UHGV virus genome: UHGV-0324630 | DNA: 37,666 nt | Direction: 5' to 3' (one strand) | Origin: a virus | Shown: piece by piece, positions 1 through 9,303 of the stretch | Layout: the number at the start of each line of letters is the position of its first letter | Position numbering within the stretch: position 1 is the stretch's first letter | Made by a program: the position numbers and the translations under genes | Notes under the pieces: model-generated | Told to the model about the DNA's origin: nothing | Databases searched by the model: none | What the model saw: the letters and a program-made list of their open reading frames with translations, nothing else

Positions 1-44
1 TCACGACACTGCTTATTGCTTTGATTTTATTCTTATCTTTCCCA

Positions 45-99
45 TGGTACCCGGAGCGGGACTTGAACCCGCACAGCGCGAACGCCGAGGGATTTTAAA
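45..99 (-). tRNA. Partial tRNA-Leu (UAA-type) 3' fragment, about 55 nt; probable prophage att core, not an intact tRNA gene
   Basis: Minus-strand reading gives ...TTTAAAATCCCTCGGCGTTCGCGCTGTGCGGGTTCAAGTCCCGCTCCGGGTACCA: long class-II variable arm, T-arm GGTTCAAGTCC, acceptor 3' strand and CCA. Matches my memory of E. coli leuZ from the anticodon loop to the CCA end. The 5' half (acceptor 5' strand, D-arm) is absent; sequence diverges at position 100. Confidence 0.7.
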
Positions 100-205: not shown

Positions 206-1207
206 TTACCCTCTATTGTCAAAAGGGTTCAATTCAACAGCAGCCTCTAAATGACCTGGAGCAAAATGCGCATAACGCATAGTCATTTTTATATCGCTAT
301 GCCCCAGTATTTTTTGCAACACAAGAATATTTCCGCCCCGCATCATAAAATGACTGGCAAACGTGTGACGTAGCACATGAGTTAATTGCCCATCAGGAAG
401 CTCGATCTTCGCTCTCTTAATTGCAGCGTCAAAAGCCTCATAACATGGTGAAAATAGCGCTCCTCGTTTTTTAGGAAGCATAGCTTGCAATTGAGGTGAA
501 ATCGGTACAGTGCGGTTCTTCTTTCCTTTAGTTTTAACAAATGTGATTCGACCGGGCAGTACTTGAGATTGCTTTAATCCTTCTGCTTCACTCCACCGAG
601 CACCAGTCGCAAGCCCAATACGGACAACAACCCCCAAATCTTTATTCCGTGACTCATCACACGCAATCAGAAGGCGTTCAATCTCATCTACATACAGAAA
701 CGCCAGTTCCTTTTCTTCCTCACGAAACTTGCGAATACCAGTCAGGGGGTTTTCACCAGACCACTCCCCAAGGCGCTTCAGTTCGGCAAAAACAGCATGT
801 AGATATGACTGCTCGCGATTAACGGTTGCTTCACTAAGTTTTTTCTTCCCCTTGGGATTCCATTCTCCTGATAGCCTTCTTTCCCGATAAGTAGCAAACA
901 TATTTTTGTCAAACTGAGAAGCAAATGGATCTCCCAGCCTGGAACAAATCGCCTCAAGTTTGACTTTGCGCTCTGCACCAGAGGACAAGGTTTTACCGTA
1001 CATCTCAAACCAACGAGCAATCAACTCAGAAAGACGAGGACCAGAACCATCTTGAAACTCGTCTCCAACTCTACTATTCATTAAACGGCGCTCATAAGAG
1101 AGCGCCTCACTTTTTGTCGCAAACTGTTTACGAATGCGTTTTCCCGATGCCCCGTAGGGATAACATTCGCAAAGCCATTTACCTGATGGAATCTTACGAA
1201 CCGACAT
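206..1207 (-). CDS. int: Tyrosine-type site-specific integrase (P2/P4 phage integrase family)
   Basis: 333-aa ORF; C-terminal catalytic region ...LRHTFASHFMMRGGNILVLQKILGHSDIKMTMRYAHF with the R..H..R..Y pattern typical of phage tyrosine recombinases; lies next to the tRNA-derived att core. Confidence 0.92.
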   Translation of the reverse strand: MSVRKIPSGKWLCECYPYGASGKRIRKQFATKSEALSYERRLMNSRVGDEFQDGSGPRLSELIARWFEMYGKTLSSGAERKVKLEAICSRLGDPFASQFDKNMFATYRERRLSGEWNPKGKKKLSEATVNREQSYLHAVFAELKRLGEWSGENPLTGIRKFREEEKELAFLYVDEIERLLIACDESRNKDLGVVVRIGLATGARWSEAEGLKQSQVLPGRITFVKTKGKKNRTVPISPQLQAMLPKKRGALFSPCYEAFDAAIKRAKIELPDGQLTHVLRHTFASHFMMRGGNILVLQKILGHSDIKMTMRYAHFAPGHLEAAVELNPFDNRG

Positions 1208-1212
1208 TTTAG

Positions 1213-1560
1213 TTACTTATCACATAAATCAAATGCAGCCTTAGTGACATCCCCCAGACTCTTTTTTAACCCTGGGGCGGCATCATTATCTAGCCAAAAT
1301 GGATTATTGTTATCTAACGGTAACGCACCAAATGTTTTACCTTTTATTCGAGCCAAACCTGTAAGTGCATATAACTTATTATCGTCAAAATTCATCACAT
1401 AAGGATTACCATCAAGACACTGTAATTGAACCTCATCAGTATTAAATGGCCATACCCCATTGAAACTCTCACGTTCAATAGTTTTAAAAGGCATTGCGAC
1501 GGCGGAAAAAGAAAACATAGATAAAAAAGTAACTAATAGTTGAACCTTTTTTACTTTCAT
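1213..1560 (-). CDS. Small secreted protein with N-terminal signal peptide, function unknown (cargo gene 5 nt upstream of int)
   Basis: 115-aa ORF; N-terminus MKVKKVQLLVTFLSMFSFSAVAMP is signal-peptide-like; two Cys in the mature part; GAGGT RBS 6 nt upstream; stop is 5 nt from the int start codon. Confidence 0.6.
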   Translation of the reverse strand: MKVKKVQLLVTFLSMFSFSAVAMPFKTIERESFNGVWPFNTDEVQLQCLDGNPYVMNFDDNKLYALTGLARIKGKTFGALPLDNNNPFWLDNDAAPGLKKSLGDVTKAAFDLCDK

Positions 1561-1589: not shown

Positions 1590-2240
1590 TTACAAATTAA
1601 AAAACGCCCTAGAAATGACACCGCCTACCAAAACCCCTACGCAGATAAAGAATATTATTTCTTTTGGATAAAGTCGGATTAATTCTGAAGCACGAAGTCG
1701 GACTTCTGGTAAGGTCGAACTCTCTGTGTGGCTTGATGCCGATTGTTGCTCTAACCACGACAATGCAGACTGTAACTGAGAACGAGTAAGATCGTTTAAA
1801 CGTCCTGTACCGAAATTGATATGGCAATACCGCAGAAGTTTTTGTCGAAGTCCACAGTCTTCACTGTTACGTAGTAATAAACTTACAAGAGCCTTACAGG
1901 CATCATGATCTTTACATCGCTCAAGCATTGCATGCAGAAAACTCTCCGCTGTTTTATATTGATTTACTGTCATATCATCAATACCAGCTACACCAATCTC
2001 CGCATGTACTTTTTGCCAAATAATAAACGCTTCAGTATTGCTAGCTTCTGCAATAGCAGCAACCAAGCTATTTAGCTCCTTACGCTGAGCCTTAAGCAAA
2101 GGGCGATCGTCATCATCATTATTCGAAGGGATTGCGATATTGACGGTATGAGAACCATCATATCGCTCTATCTGAATATTCTTTTCGTGAAAATCACGCC
2201 CAGCAACGCGATTGTTTGAACCGTTTGAGTTGACGGCCAT
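1590..2240 (-). CDS. Hypothetical protein with C-terminal transmembrane anchor; N-terminus shares an NNR[IV]AGRD[YF] motif with the upstream HTH protein
   Basis: 216-aa ORF; GGAGGTGA RBS; C-terminal hydrophobic stretch IIFFICVGVLVGGVISRAFF; N-terminal NSNGSNNRVAGRDFHE resembles the C-terminal ISGGNNRIAGRDYNE of the ORF at 2256..2660. Confidence 0.6.
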   Translation of the reverse strand: MAVNSNGSNNRVAGRDFHEKNIQIERYDGSHTVNIAIPSNNDDDDRPLLKAQRKELNSLVAAIAEASNTEAFIIWQKVHAEIGVAGIDDMTVNQYKTAESFLHAMLERCKDHDACKALVSLLLRNSEDCGLRQKLLRYCHINFGTGRLNDLTRSQLQSALSWLEQQSASSHTESSTLPEVRLRASELIRLYPKEIIFFICVGVLVGGVISRAFFNL

Positions 2241-2255
2241 GTCACCTCCCTACTA

Positions 2256-2660
2256 TCACCTACCCTTAGTTTCGTTATAGTCACGACCAGCGATACGGTT
2301 ATTACCACCAGAAATATTTAACTCACGTCCTGATGGCTGAGTTTCCTTTTCACTGATCGCACCTTTTAAAGCCCCAATCACCGCGTTTTTCACATCTAAC
2401 GAAGCTGCTCGAAAGCGAGTAATCAATTCCTGCTCATCATCGTTATAAGTTTCAGGTGAGTGAATTCCCAACACAACATACTGAACATCAAGGCCAAAAC
2501 GAGACAGCGCTGCCAAATACGCAGCATCAGGAAAGCTATCTCCTTTCTCATATCTAAGCTGAGTTAGCTTTTTGACTCCACCAATGTCGCTCATGGCAAC
2601 TTGACTAAGTCCCAATCTTTCCCTTTCCTCACGCAACCGCTGACCAATATCATTTTTCAT
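2256..2660 (-). CDS. XRE-family helix-turn-helix transcriptional regulator; probable lysogeny repressor (P2 C / 186 CI functional analogue)
   Basis: 134-aa ORF; N-terminal IGQRLREERERLGLSQVAMSDIGGVKKLTQLRYEKG is a typical XRE HTH; transcribed divergently from the RHH/Cox-like genes and toward int, as in P2-like immunity regions. Confidence 0.8.
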   Translation of the reverse strand: MKNDIGQRLREERERLGLSQVAMSDIGGVKKLTQLRYEKGDSFPDAAYLAALSRFGLDVQYVVLGIHSPETYNDDEQELITRFRAASLDVKNAVIGALKGAISEKETQPSGRELNISGGNNRIAGRDYNETKGR

Positions 2661-2669
2661 ACAAAAACC

Positions 2670-2698
2670 TTGACAGGTATCTTTTTTGATACCAAAAT
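2670..2698 (+). promoter_or_regulatory. Candidate rightward early promoter (TTGACA, 17-bp spacer, CAAAAT) with embedded operator-like inverted repeat GGTATC-tttttt-GATACC (2676..2693)
   Basis: Perfect -35 hexamer TTGACA at 2670-2675; weak -10 at 2693-2698; perfect 6-bp inverted repeat occupies the spacer; sits in the 75-bp repressor/RHH intergenic region. Confidence 0.35.
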
Positions 2699-2735
2699 GA
2701 TTTCACGAGCTATTAGATGATCACAATATACCACT

Positions 2736-2942
2736 ATGAAACAAGTTCTTCACGATACCAGATCACGCATTCCGCGTAACACCGCCACAGGTCCAAGACT
2801 GGCACTTCGGCTGTCCCTCGAGGAGCGAGCCGTCATTGATGAAATGGCAGCTAAAGAACAACGCTCATCCTCTAACATGGCGCGCATGATCTTCCTTCGC
2901 GGCCTAGAGCTAACCCAGAAAGAACAAAACAAATCTTCCTGA
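2736..2942 (+). CDS. Ribbon-helix-helix (CopG/Arc-like) small DNA-binding protein, first gene of the rightward early operon
   Basis: 68-aa ORF; RLALRLSLEERAVIDEMAAKEQRSSSNMARMIFLRGLE fits a beta-strand/helix/helix RHH pattern. Confidence 0.65.
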   Translation: MKQVLHDTRSRIPRNTATGPRLALRLSLEERAVIDEMAAKEQRSSSNMARMIFLRGLELTQKEQNKSS

Positions 2943-2958
2943 TCAGGAGGCTAGTGGG

Positions 2959-3162
2959 ATGTCAGGTATAACCATCAATATCAATGTGAATGCCCCCTAT
3001 GTATCCCTGCAGAAATATGCAGAGATAACAGGTATCCCTCTTAATACATGCAAAAAGATGTTGGCTGACGGTCGAATTATTATCCGCCCCAAACGCGCCA
3101 AAATGGAAAAGCCTGAAGTAAACCTTGTGGCGATGTTAAAAGACGCTTTGGCTAACAGCTAA
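2959..3162 (+). CDS. Cox/excisionase-like small HTH DNA-binding protein
   Basis: 67-aa ORF with strong AGGAGG RBS; YVSLQKYAEITGIPLNTCKKMLADGRI resembles the P2 Cox / AlpA-Xis HTH region (from memory). Confidence 0.65.
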   Translation: MSGITININVNAPYVSLQKYAEITGIPLNTCKKMLADGRIIIRPKRAKMEKPEVNLVAMLKDALANS

Positions 3163-5483: not shown

Positions 5484-5605
5484 GAAACCAGAACATGCAC
5501 ACACAAAAAAACCGCTTGCCATGCCGCAATCGGTCAGGTTACATTTCCGCTGCACCTCATAAAACGGGTGCCGGGATTCTCAACCCGATACAGAGCAAAG
5601 CGCAT

Positions 5606-5626
5606 AACCGCGCTAGCGGTTTTTTT
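5606..5626 (+). terminator. Intrinsic terminator-like hairpin (AACCGC-gcta-GCGGTT followed by a T-run)
   Basis: GC-rich 6-bp stem, 4-nt loop, then about 7 T; 123 nt downstream of the stop at 5483. Confidence 0.5.
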
Positions 5627-5805
5627 GTGCGTACTGTATTGCCACGTCTTTTTCGCGTCAGAATTATGGCGGGGCGTACGGGGCCGACTTCGGTCGGGCC
5701 GGATTCTTTGCTCTCCGGTGTTGAGAACCCTGTACGTCTCGCCACCCCGAGATTCTCAACTCTGGATGGTGAGTTATTTCTATCACCGAGCAAAGAGGCC
5801 ACACC

Positions 5806-6036
5806 ATGGCAGACCGCAAACAGCACCGCGCTATCGCGGAGCGTCGTCACATCCAGACTGAAATCAACCGCAGACTTTCCCGCGCATCACGCGTCGCGCA
5901 AATCATGCACATCAATATGCTGCATGAGCGCAGCCACGCACTATCAAACATTTATTCCGCCTCTGTTTTCAGCTATCTGGCGGATGATCTGCACGAGTTT
6001 CAACAGCTCATCCAGCAGCAAAACAAACTCCATTAA
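5806..6036 (+). CDS. Hypothetical small basic protein upstream of the replication genes
   Basis: 76-aa ORF with AAGAGG RBS 7 nt upstream. Confidence 0.55.
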   Translation: MADRKQHRAIAERRHIQTEINRRLSRASRVAQIMHINMLHERSHALSNIYSASVFSYLADDLHEFQQLIQQQNKLH

Positions 6037-6480: not shown

Positions 6481-9303
6481 ATGACGGCAGAGTACATCAG
6501 GGACTGGCAACAACCGCGCCACGCAGTGGGGCGTGAAGGAACGGGGATCCCCGCTCCTGAATCTGCGCTTTCCTCCTGGCTGGATGCCTACCGGGCAGAG
6601 AACGAGCGCCGCCAGGAAATGGCTGATGCGGCGTTCTCCGCCACACCGCTGGGCAACCTGATTAATAAAAGCCTGGACGCACAGGAAAAACAGGACAAAG
6701 CCATCACACTGGCAGGAGACGCCAGAAAACAGGCACGCGGCGCGGTGGATGAAGCCATGGCCTCGCTGCGCCTGCTGCCGTCCTATTTGCGCGATCCACT
6801 TATTCGTCACCTCTCCTTCCTGCGCAAAAAACAGGAAGCCGATCGCCGGAAAGGCAAAAAGAGCTGGCAGGCAGAACGCTATGCACGCGGAACCCTGCGC
6901 AAGATATTCGATCGCATAAACCGCACCGACAGCCGCTGGCTGACACCGGGTTATCGCTCCCTTGCCGGACGCGAACGCCTGGACGATTTGCTTTACCTGC
7001 CGCAGCTCAACAAGCACCAGATACAGACGCTGGCTACCATGACGGCGGCGATGTTCAGCAGCACCTTCGAAAAACTCTGCGATGGTTTTGGCGCGACCGA
7101 TGGCGAGCTGACCATGGATGTAACCCTGAAGGCGTATCAGATGCTGGCCCGCATGGCGTTACACCTGCACGCCATGCCTCCACATTATGACGCACTGACA
7201 ACAGACAAAGACCGGAGGAACGAACCGGACACGGAGCTGCTGCCAGGCGCAATCCTTCGCCTGACCTGTGCGGAATGGTGGAAACGCAAACTGTGGCTGT
7301 TACGTTGTGAGTGGCGGGAAGAACAACTTCGCGCCGCCTGTCTGGTTTCCAGAAAAACATCGCCCTATCTGAGCCAGGACGCGTTAAGCGAGTTTCGCGC
7401 ACAGCGCGAGAAAACACGCGATTTCCTGAAAAGTTTCATGCTGGAAAACGAAGACGGGTTCACGATTGATCTCGAGACAGTGTATTACGCGGGAGTAAGT
7501 AACCCGGTTCACCGTAAGGCAGAAATGATGGCCACCATGAAGGGGCTGGAACTTCTGGCCGAAGCCCGTGGCGACAAAGCGGTGTTTCTGACTGTCACCT
7601 GCCCGTCAAAATACCACGCCACAACAGAGAACGGTCATCCGAATCCCAAATGGAACGGGGCCACCATGCGCGACTCCAGCGATTACCTGGTTAACACGTT
7701 TTTTGCGGCGGTCCGCAAGAAACTGAACCGCGACGGCCTGCGCTGGTATGGCATCCGCACGGTGGAGCCTCACCATGACGGCACCGTGCACTGGCATATG
7801 ATGGTCTTTGCTCATCCGGAAGAAATCGACACCATTGTGTCCCACACCCGTGATATTGCCATTCAGGAAGATCGTCACGAGCTGGGTGATGATATTACCC
7901 CACGCTTTAAGGCGGAGTACGTCGACGGCTCAAAAGGCACACCGACCAGCTACATCGCCACCTACATCGGGAAAAACCTGGACAGCCGTGCCGTGGATGG
8001 CATCGACCCGAAAACGGGCAAGCCACGCGTTGACCACGAAACCGGAAAATCAATGGCCGAGAGCGTGGAACGCGCCATCGGCTGGGCGCGCCTTCACCGG
8101 GTCCGCCAGTTCCAGTTTTTTGGTATCCCCTCCCGTCAGGTGTGGCGTGAGCTGCGTCGCCTTGCCAGCCAGATGGCACGCAACCCGGAAGGCCCACAAC
8201 GGCTGAAGGATGACGCAATGGATGCGGTTCTTGCTGCCGCTGATGCCGGATGTTTTGCCACCTACATAGAGAAACAGGGCGGCGTACTTGTTCCACGCAA
8301 GGACTACCTGGTTCGCACCGCCTACGACCTCGCAGATGAACTGAATGATTACGGCGAACAGAGCGTACAGATTTACGGGATCTGGTCACCACTCATCGGG
8401 GAATCCTCTCGTGTGTGCACGCATCCGGATAACTGGAAGCTGGTAAGACGTAAACCGGAAACGGAAGACAGCGCCCGCGAAAATGGTTTTGACCTTCAGG
8501 GCGGCCCTGCCGCCCCTTGGACTCGTGGCAATAACTGTCCCCGTGTACAGGAAACGGACAACAACGGGACAGAACAGCCGGAAGAACGGCCAGCACCGTG
8601 GCCGCAGCTCCCTGACGGCGTTGAAGTGAACGAATGGATGCGCTCACTGAAACGGCACGAACGCCGGGCGCTGATGCGTTCGCTTCGTGACAAACAGGCA
8701 AAAAACAGCAGTGATGAAATGCAGAGCTGGACACAGAGCCGCAAACAGCAGCGGCCTTTGCCTGATAACCACGAATTACTCGCTAAAGAATGGCGGGAGT
8801 CTGCTGAATCTCTCGGCCTGCATATCGGTGAACAACAGATGCAGCACCTGTTACGGGGCGGCAGTCTGTACGTTGACGGCAGCATCATTGCACCGCAGGG
8901 ATTTGAAATTATACGCAAACCGGATACCCGCCCGGACAGCCGAATCACGCAGCTCTGGCAGCGCCTGAGCCGTAATCACGGCGTAAGCAGCACGGAGATC
9001 CGCCATAACCCGGTCGCCAGCTATCTGGCACAGCTGGGGGCATCAGCCCCTGAAGCCGCCGCACGCCTGGCATCCACACTTCAGCAGGACCAGAACACCA
9101 TGAAAACACCCGTTACCGTGCTTTCTGACATGCTGCGCGCCATCCGCGACGCAGAGCACGCACAGAGAATCAGTGAAACCACTGAACGCGCCCGCCGCAA
9201 AGCAGACCTGCTGCGGGGTGGCCTGACCAGTGGAAACAATAAACAGACAGAAACGGGACTCACGAATCCCGTAAATGAGCAAAAAACGCGCAGCGATATA
9301 TGA
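6481..9303 (+). CDS. A: Rolling-circle replication initiation endonuclease (P2 gpA family), with a long C-terminal extension
   Basis: 940-aa ORF; HUH-type motif GTVHWHMMVFAHP and paired-tyrosine motif TSYIATYIGKN typical of P2 A-type Rep proteins. Longer than P2 gpA (about 760 aa by my memory). Confidence 0.9.
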   Translation: MTAEYIRDWQQPRHAVGREGTGIPAPESALSSWLDAYRAENERRQEMADAAFSATPLGNLINKSLDAQEKQDKAITLAGDARKQARGAVDEAMASLRLLPSYLRDPLIRHLSFLRKKQEADRRKGKKSWQAERYARGTLRKIFDRINRTDSRWLTPGYRSLAGRERLDDLLYLPQLNKHQIQTLATMTAAMFSSTFEKLCDGFGATDGELTMDVTLKAYQMLARMALHLHAMPPHYDALTTDKDRRNEPDTELLPGAILRLTCAEWWKRKLWLLRCEWREEQLRAACLVSRKTSPYLSQDALSEFRAQREKTRDFLKSFMLENEDGFTIDLETVYYAGVSNPVHRKAEMMATMKGLELLAEARGDKAVFLTVTCPSKYHATTENGHPNPKWNGATMRDSSDYLVNTFFAAVRKKLNRDGLRWYGIRTVEPHHDGTVHWHMMVFAHPEEIDTIVSHTRDIAIQEDRHELGDDITPRFKAEYVDGSKGTPTSYIATYIGKNLDSRAVDGIDPKTGKPRVDHETGKSMAESVERAIGWARLHRVRQFQFFGIPSRQVWRELRRLASQMARNPEGPQRLKDDAMDAVLAAADAGCFATYIEKQGGVLVPRKDYLVRTAYDLADELNDYGEQSVQIYGIWSPLIGESSRVCTHPDNWKLVRRKPETEDSARENGFDLQGGPAAPWTRGNNCPRVQETDNNGTEQPEERPAPWPQLPDGVEVNEWMRSLKRHERRALMRSLRDKQAKNSSDEMQSWTQSRKQQRPLPDNHELLAKEWRESAESLGLHIGEQQMQHLLRGGSLYVDGSIIAPQGFEIIRKPDTRPDSRITQLWQRLSRNHGVSSTEIRHNPVASYLAQLGASAPEAAARLASTLQQDQNTMKTPVTVLSDMLRAIRDAEHAQRISETTERARRKADLLRGGLTSGNNKQTETGLTNPVNEQKTRSDI

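Follow-up and report, generated by a model that had tools for sequence, protein, structure and literature searches.

A peptide common to two adjacent prophage gene products

The window analyzed here is UHGV virus genome UHGV-0324630 over its whole length of 37,666 nucleotides (nt), a P2-like prophage of Escherichia coli (Peduoviridae, Xuanwuvirus-type). Two neighboring genes on its minus strand encode a 134-amino-acid (aa) XRE-type helix-turn-helix (HTH) protein (2256-2660; assigned from the open reading frame (ORF) list, Pfam, PHROG, a PDB profile search and an AF2 structure model) and a 216-aa tail-anchored membrane protein (1590-2240; Pfam PF27202 Flk_N, phrog_5825 and AF2), hereafter the partner. 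The HTH protein, a putative prophage immunity repressor, ends in ...ELNISGGNNRIAGRDYNETKGR followed by a stop codon, and the partner begins with MAVNSNGSNNRVAGRDFHEKNIQ. Residues 114-130 of the HTH protein (LNISGGNNRIAGRDYNE; 2271-2321, minus strand) align with residues 3-19 of the partner (VNSNGSNNRVAGRDFHE, directly after MA; 2184-2234, minus strand; also delimited by the homologue alignment) over 17 positions, of which 10 are identical and 15 similar (BLASTP E=2e-5 for this single comparison). Both copies lie in termini that AF2 predicts to be disordered; the HTH tail, residues 103-134, has a predicted local distance difference test (pLDDT) score below 50, and residues 1-45 of the partner score about 50-58, with no secondary structure around the motif.

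The match is real and far beyond chance. When the last 30 aa of each window ORF with a length of 80 aa or more were compared with the first 40 aa of every other such ORF, the HTH/partner pair scored 62, the maximum of 11,990 comparisons (next 43; mean 16.1, standard deviation 3.8), and homologues of both proteins carry the motif. An earlier note on this DNA, made from the sequence alone, had described both ORFs correctly; it gave the common motif as nine residues, fewer than the 17 that align, and rightly saw that the two copies are encoded by diverged nucleotides. In the DNA behind the shared peptide 30 of 51 bases are identical, and the same codon is used at four of the 10 identical residues. 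In composition the motif is rich in Asn (3.7-fold) and Gly (2.2-fold) and poor in Leu (0.09-fold), Lys (0.32-fold) and Pro (0.41-fold) relative to the rest of the same proteins, with Gln, Val and Ile about neutral.

The two ORFs lie in one frame in the window. At the junction (2241-2258, minus strand) the HTH stop codon TGA (2256-2258) is followed by in-frame TAG TAG and by GGAGGTGAC, which holds a GGAGG ribosome-binding site, a strong Shine-Dalgarno sequence, ahead of the partner ATG (2238-2240).

Conservation of the pair in P2-like and Mu-like prophages

The HTH-partner pair, followed by a variable gene and a P2-type integrase gene, recurs in nine Enterobacterales genera (Klebsiella, Rosenbergiella, Mixta, Izhakiella, Enterobacter, Erwinia, Symbiopectobacterium, Hafnia and Arsenophonus). 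Distant HTH homologues are found in Mu-like prophages of Pseudomonas, Gilliamella and Pectobacterium among transposase, MuB-like, Ner-like and holin/SLT genes, and there too a Flk_N tail-anchored protein is encoded downstream. The range of the module takes in E. coli, Klebsiella, Enterobacter, Serratia, Yersinia, Pectobacterium, Pseudomonas and Gilliamella.

Scanning IMG/VR with an alignment of the HTH protein gave 80 loci, which together with the loci already collected yielded 49 distinct HTH/Flk_N pairs; overall, at least 50 distinct pairs share a motif between the termini of adjacent gene products. Approached from the HTH side, nearly all loci carry a motif-bearing membrane partner downstream. 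Approached from the partner side, with the search pattern GxxNR[VT]AGRD, 53 of the 54 distinct loci show a motif-tailed HTH gene upstream. In both P2-like and Mu-like prophages the 216-aa gene accompanies this repressor family almost without exception. No third gene, downstream or divergent, is conserved in the module among the loci compared.

In most loci the distance from HTH stop to partner start falls between -4 nt and about 30 nt, a spacing that fits coupled translation. The relative frame of the two ORFs varies from locus to locus, and some of the genes overlap by ATGA. Read-through or frameshift fusion can be ruled out, given the three in-frame stops here and the varying frames and ATGA overlaps elsewhere. 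Fission of a fused ancestral gene was also considered and rejected, since no HTH-Flk_N fusion occurs among the 136 representative clusters, the only ones recovered by an exhaustive profile search for the partner. In a few loci an extra ORF or spacer separates the two genes and both motif copies are kept (L127, at 2135-2479; L145; L133; and, with about 260 nt, L121, L154 and L165).

Peptide variation between lineages and matching within pairs

The peptide differs from lineage to lineage, and within each pair the repressor tail matches the partner N-terminus. Examples are FNGDISGQFAGNQIIN with FNGTAQGQFSSRDIIN and QQFNGPVGTVTSGDVVN with QQFHDRVHQVAAGDIKN; the IMG/VR set holds the further matched classes VFHGAVSGGVAARDIIN with EFQGNVDGGVAGRDIVN and LNFNGPVGTAFSGD with LNFHAPVEYAAGGD. 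The Pectobacterium pair reads PQIFNGDISGQFAGNQIINN and MRQEFNGTAQGQFSSRDIINI, the Pseudomonas pair GQQFNGPVGTVTSGDVVNHE and ANQQFHDRVHQVAAGDIKNF, and the Gilliamella pair GEGQIAGGNIY and AEQIAGRDIY. For 20 non-redundant pairs the within-pair scores sum to 860, compared with a mean of 522 under permutation (p<=1e-5); the true partner ranks first in seven pairs and among the top five in 17. Over all pairs, the same codon is used at only 42% of 471 identical aligned residues. Codon usage therefore rules out gene conversion as the cause of the match, which has been held at the protein level rather than renewed at the DNA level.

Where the downstream gene is not Flk_N-like, its product still begins with the tail peptide of the repressor. 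Partners with two transmembrane (TM) segments are encoded at L058 (QVFNSKVSGQVSAENIYNF in the tail, QNFYGQVDQVAANNIYNIY in the partner) and likewise at L063 and L098, a Zn-ribbon protein with two TM segments at L066 (SGDNNRVAGRDY and GGNNNRVAGRDY), and a 183-aa membrane protein at L062. The partners at L071 and L087-L094 are bitopic, with a coiled coil, one TM segment and a small periplasmic Cys-containing domain. All partners are membrane proteins with the motif on the cytoplasmic N-terminus. Among the bitopic partners, those of L087, L088, L089, L090, L094 and L071 join the N-terminal motif to a Flk_N-like start, a long coiled coil and one TM segment, and their periplasmic domain has a conserved C..F.G..YS.G....C....W pattern, which suggests an extracytoplasmic sensing version of the module.

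Two natural swaps separate the motif from the rest of both proteins. The HTH cores of L017 and L063 are 96% identical and those of L019 and L066 are 97% identical; within each couple the tails differ and the partners are unrelated, yet each tail matches its own partner. Conversely, the NRVAGRD class is joined to unrelated partner domains, Flk_N in the window and a Zn-ribbon with two TM segments in L066. From these swaps, the specificity lies in the motif and not in the HTH core or the partner domain. More than one motif class can be found within a host genus: three in Gilliamella and two in Pectobacterium.

Domain organization of the repressor and the partner

In the AF2 model of the HTH protein (m9d36bf59e2ae), a five-helix XRE-type domain (residues 5-64) and a helix pair (74-105) precede the disordered tail. 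Its Pfam matches, to HTH_31 and HTH_3, are weak; PHROG places it in phrog_8, transcriptional regulators (E=2.5e-14), and the PDB profile search returned P22 C2, C.Csp231I and ICEBs1 ImmR. PADLOC 2.0 gave only weak matches of the HTH region to RmrA. Many homologues terminate in ...INVSGxGNRVAGRDYNENKK, and the protein of the window finishes with basic TKGR (2259-2270) directly after the shared peptide. A Lys/Arg-rich end follows the shared peptide in every repressor tail of the window and of L002-L100 (..NENKK, ..RRRKIK, ..GKGKKRK and ..PRKKK are examples) and is absent from the partner copy; possible roles are those of an aggregation gatekeeper, of a contact to lipid or DNA, or of a protease tag. 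The HTH family also has a tail-less branch, represented by L100 (an E. coli 119-aa HTH type, P0224), in which the downstream genes encode first a 117-aa CxxC protein that lacks the motif and next a TM protein; it is an alternative module on the same repressor scaffold.

The partner is modeled with a mean pLDDT of 86. Its cytoplasmic helical Flk_N-type domain, residues 46-175 (1716-2105, minus strand), is very confident, and a C-terminal TM helix, residues 192-215 (1596-1667, minus strand), forms the tail anchor, the hydrophobic C-terminal end being kept in the family. The protein belongs to phrog_5825, a family of unassigned function (E=4e-103). Residues 37-166 match the NCBIfam equivalog model of Flk (NF007987) with 58.1 bits, below the cut-off of 353, and the partner is a relative of Flk, not Flk itself. 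Across 23 homologues of 58-96% identity, S5, G7, N10, R11, G14, D16 and E19, all within the peptide, are invariant. The motif, or a variant of the kind FHGxVGQVAxGDIxNF, opens most of the roughly 200-aa tail-anchored members of the 136 clusters; it is absent from true Flk proteins (MQPxSGPG...).

In a copy of Pfam that lacked Flk_N, the partner gave only spurious matches to zf-P11 and ELYS. No toxin family of Pfam or NCBIfam matches the partner, and a Foldseek search of the PDB returned nothing significant and no match to Bell-like folds. The structure search of BFVD gave only weak matches of the ORF6C, RecT-C and Bro-C type. Part of the Flk_N domain resembles the C-terminal domain of Red-beta, which binds the C-terminal tail peptide of SSB.

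RefSeq/PGAP labels the partner a hypothetical protein, as does every database compared. Among isolated phages, tblastn with the E. coli partner found only phage 520873 (L001, NC_049344) and, weakly, Ralstonia phages; the Pseudomonas partner had no match among them. In phage 520873 the partner gene (about 2459-3065) is unannotated and is recovered in three tblastn pieces, and the integrase is split into two coding sequences; these broken frames are probably sequencing frameshifts.

The leftward operon and its surroundings

The left 3.6 kb of the window is 97% identical to phage 520873, and in E. coli the prophage is integrated beside yecA. A 1.5-kb stretch with the HTH-partner pair is present in 521 of 5,426 complete E. 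coli genomes, O157:H7 strains among them. Window positions 1-99 match the terminal sequences of several further E. coli phage records at 100% identity and resemble the 3' part of a tRNA, as in an attachment core; ARAGORN found no complete tRNA there.

The leftward order is HTH gene, partner gene, the gene of a 115-aa DUF2511 protein (1213-1560, minus strand; Pfam DUF2511 with 28.4 bits, the cut-off being 21; phrog_2950) and that of a P2-type tyrosine integrase (206-1207, minus strand; Pfam Int_N and Phage_integrase), the last of the series. The intergenic gaps of 15, 29 and 5 nt, and the absence of terminator-like sites on the minus strand from the HTH gene to int, fit a single leftward operon. 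Here the reading of the sequence in the earlier note holds for the leftward operon itself, for the C-terminal TM anchor of the partner and for a secreted 115-aa protein, whose N-terminus is signal-peptide-like as read from the sequence.

The slot between the partner gene and int varies in content among relatives. DUF2511 occupies it in the window and in Rosenbergiella; Klebsiella and Enterobacter have a 288-aa protein there, Mixta and Hafnia membrane proteins of about 240 aa (one of 244 aa), and Izhakiella a 102-aa protein (slot coordinates 4647-5513 in L002, 4653-5387 in L007, 4639-4947 in L008 and 4713-5441 in L012).

On the other side of the HTH gene, a divergent control region (2661-2735) separates it from rightward early genes (2736-3162, plus strand) that encode an Arc-like 68-aa protein (2736-2942; phrog_3431) and a Cox-like 67-aa protein (2959-3162; phrog_575). 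It contains, by consensus matches only, a promoter-like site, TTGACA-17-CAAAAT, at 2670-2698 on the plus strand and an imperfect inverted repeat at 2649-2701 that may be an operator. In P2 the C repressor gene lies opposite cox and is co-transcribed with int. As the HTH gene is leftward, co-operonic with int and opposite the Arc-like and Cox-like genes, its product takes the place of the P2 C repressor in the layout; in the Mu-like relatives the HTH gene is divergent from Ner-like and transposase genes. The placement of the HTH protein as immunity repressor, raised in the earlier note, agrees with both arrangements.

Further to the right, Rfam matches above the gathering score to isrK (63 bits) and to C4 antisense RNA (78.5 bits) lie at 5552-5626 and 5662-5749 on the plus strand. 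They form an antisense control element of the P1/P7 immI type, here within a P2-like prophage and placed upstream of both a 76-aa ORF (5806-6036) and a 940-aa replication gene (6481-9303), and suggest a second layer of immunity control.

Discussion

The pair described here consists of a transcriptional repressor and a Flk-related tail-anchored protein that share a terminal motif, in a module of P2-like and Mu-like prophages. Our search of the literature found no earlier description of a motif common to a repressor tail and a membrane partner, or of this module. The shared peptide probably serves as a pair-specific, self-matching association element that links the repressor tail to the membrane partner. 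This reading builds on the match itself, its conservation, its variation in step between lineages and its independence from both the HTH core and the globular domain of the partner, and is consistent with both copies being predicted as disordered and with all partners being membrane proteins. Of the meanings offered in the earlier note, a common interaction site is the one best suited to a peptide that differs between lineages but matches within pairs through natural swaps, and the inference of selection at the protein level is borne out by diverged codons behind a match kept across classes. As part of the same explanation, the repressor and its partner likely make up an immunity module of two genes, transferred together between P2-like and Mu-like prophages.

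In mechanistic terms, the two copies of the peptide would pair directly, in the simplest case as in-register (parallel) beta strands, a stacking we favor since in-register geometry prefers like-on-like residues. Such pairing would tie the repressor to the membrane-anchored partner translated next from the same mRNA, and the placement of the peptide at a C-terminal end and the following N-terminal end, with close stop and start codons, may favor assembly while the chains are being made. The outcome we lean toward, tentatively, is that the partner is a membrane modulator in the manner of an anti-sigma factor or Flk, holding and releasing the repressor and so tuning the switch between lysis and lysogeny; the homology to Flk, the anti-sigma-like layout and the coupled translation favor it. 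Nearly as likely, though equally tentative, is that the repressor tail gates a membrane effector in a toxin-antitoxin or abortive-infection manner, which the diversity of small membrane modules favors.

It is also possible, if somewhat doubtful, that the peptide is an amyloid-type signaling motif, acting by prion-like templating, on a transcription factor. The assembly state of the repressor tail would then be passed to the membrane protein by cross-beta templating, or the reverse, coupling the status of the repressor (in lysogeny, on induction, under attack by a superinfecting phage or after prophage loss) to an event at the membrane, for example cell death, exclusion or sequestration of the repressor.

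Several observations count against these proposals. Within the NRxAGRD class, covariation at the variable position is absent; there is a mild asymmetry, tails preferring Tyr and partners Phe. As co-variation is seen only between some six to eight motif classes, the number of independent events is limited, and a restricted number of ancestral events might account for the between-class pattern. A second copy of the motif, as in the pseudorepeats of HET-s, was not significant against shuffled sequences in the partners of most pairs; in some lineages a GR[DH] recurs about 15 residues downstream of the motif. Co-expression of both motif proteins from one coupled operon is awkward for a trigger-type templating switch. 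As to outcome, the partner may have the exclusion or abortive-infection role put forward in the earlier note, but PADLOC 2.0 found no match for either the partner or the 115-aa protein, and the nearest known relative of the partner, Flk, is a regulator and not a toxin.

Identical peptides would also be expected under competitive mimicry, in which the tail docks elsewhere, on the repressor oligomer or on the helical domain of the partner, and the partner N-terminus competes with it as an anti-repressor or an auto-inhibitory pseudo-ligand. The likeness of part of Flk_N to a peptide-binding domain of Red-beta suits this idea, as do weak links of the domain, in PHROG and BFVD, to regulatory proteins of the Ant/ORF6C type. 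However, a single motif class (NRVAGRD) occurs with unrelated partner domains and near-identical HTH cores occur with different classes, so neither candidate docking site tracks the motif, and the AF2 monomers lack confident docking of either copy in cis. We regard mimicry as unlikely. Slightly less probable still is that a factor of host or phage origin (for instance a protease, a chaperone or targeting machinery) reads both peptides, the two proteins being co-regulated with no mutual contact. Disordered terminal peptides are often degrons, and the Lys/Arg-rich ends of the HTH tails recall C-terminal ClpX tags. Nevertheless, a host factor would be expected to keep the motif constant within a host, whereas several classes coexist within single genera, as in Gilliamella and Pectobacterium; together with the lack of a conserved third gene in the module, this makes a shared host or phage receptor unlikely.

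The comparative data largely refute the remaining alternative, that the 216-aa gene is an independent moron encoding an exclusion or abortive-infection effector and that the motif is a duplication scar at the junction. Genes co-transcribed with a repressor are often exclusion genes, as with rexAB of lambda, the neighboring DUF2511 slot is truly variable, and both ORFs share a frame in the window. Even so, the near-obligate association with the HTH family in two phage types, a motif that is kept and varies in step across many classes, the diverged codons, the differing relative frames and the lack of a fused form among the 136 clusters leave this alternative very improbable. The suggestion in the earlier note that the motif might be a relic of duplication fails for similar reasons, the match being kept across at least six to eight motif types with no sign of gene conversion in the codons. 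Its description of two inserted cargo genes stands in part: the DUF2511 slot is variable as cargo would be, but the 216-aa gene, found with the repressor in 53 of 54 loci, is not cargo of that kind.

Among known systems, the closest formal parallel to an association through a shared peptide is with amyloid signaling pairs such as Bab/Agp. In Bab/Agp (BASS11), from E. coli prophage islands, a 20-aa amyloid motif in adjacent gene products carries the phage signal to a membrane-targeting executioner (bioRxiv 10.1101/2024.11.07.622273). Both systems consist of adjacent prophage genes with a peptide of about 20 aa at one C-terminal and one N-terminal end, one partner targets the membrane, and the motif is small and, in the monomer, is predicted to lack structure. 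The Bab/Agp membrane protein, however, is Bell-like with the motif at its C-terminal end, in contrast to the N-terminal motif here, and amyloid formation was shown for Bab/Agp, while the present pair is known from sequence and is likened to it by description.

A terminal motif common to the products of neighboring genes is likewise found in the Bell/NLR systems BASS1-10 of filamentous bacteria and in fungal HET-S/NWD2, and bacterial amyloid signaling motifs are enriched in Gln, Asn, Gly, Val and Ile and depleted in Lys, Pro and Leu (bioRxiv 10.1101/2020.01.06.895854). The motif here is similarly rich in Gly and Asn and poor in Lys, Pro and Leu, and one motif is again joined to several effector domains. 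It departs from BASS1-10 in that Gln, Val and Ile are about neutral. Moreover, BASS1-10 motifs are about 25 aa long, their receptors are of the NB-ARC/NACHT type, they come mostly from multicellular bacteria, and their effectors commonly carry pseudorepeats, which are unsupported here. Set against the usual makeup of an amyloid pair, the prophage module has the short terminal motif common to adjacent products (the 17-aa match), but its upstream protein is a 134-aa XRE-type HTH protein rather than an NLR/STAND or TPR-type sensor, and its partner is a Flk_N domain with a tail anchor rather than a Bell/HeLo-type or other cell-death effector.

Other systems resemble the module in layout or in the fate proposed for the repressor. 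In operons of extracytoplasmic function (ECF) sigma factors and membrane anti-sigma factors, such as RpoE-RseA, the gene for the factor precedes one for a protein that spans the membrane once, the stop codon of the first often overlapping the start codon of the second, and the cytoplasmic N-terminus of the anti-sigma factor binds the sigma factor. The layout here is alike, and some partners also have a periplasmic C-terminal domain; anti-sigma factors, however, bind through a folded domain rather than a peptide identical to one in the factor, and there is no homology. In type II toxin-antitoxin systems with HTH antitoxins (HigA, MqsA, HipB), a disordered C-terminal tail binds the product of the downstream gene, in what is expected to be an autoregulated operon. 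The N-terminal HTH, the disordered C-terminal tail, the tightly linked downstream gene and weak NCBIfam model matches recall such systems, but the partner has no known toxin fold, a self-matching peptide is not known as a toxin-antitoxin feature, and only the gene layout fits. Phage repressors can also be inactivated by aggregation, as with RstC-RstR of CTXphi/RS1 and Qtip-cI of VP882. As we propose here, a repressor is in those cases drawn into an assembly instead of being cleaved, although RstC and Qtip are small soluble antirepressors with no known shared peptide and are not known to be co-transcribed with the repressor.

Flk (Fluke/RflH) of Salmonella and E. coli is a 333-aa tail-anchored cytoplasmic regulator of the type III secretion switch in flagella (PMC13344023). 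It has in common with the partner the homologous Flk_N helical domain, a C-terminal membrane anchor and a largely cytoplasmic bulk, and its role at the membrane is regulatory and non-lethal, that of a regulator and not of a toxin. Unlike the partner, Flk is longer, with two matched stretches, lacks the N-terminal peptide, and is chromosomal with no repressor partner. The homology suggests that this host flagellar regulator is related to a prophage protein family.

As the repressors of this family are without a LexA-like cleavage domain, the peptide link offers a possible route by which prophage exit could be sensed, either by membrane tethering and release of the repressor or through a membrane effector gated by the repressor. 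Should the peptide prove to be amyloid-like, amyloid signaling would extend from NLR-type immune receptors to transcription factors, and this would be the first amyloid signaling pair with a DNA-binding repressor, one that is common in Enterobacterales and present in about 10% of complete E. coli genomes.

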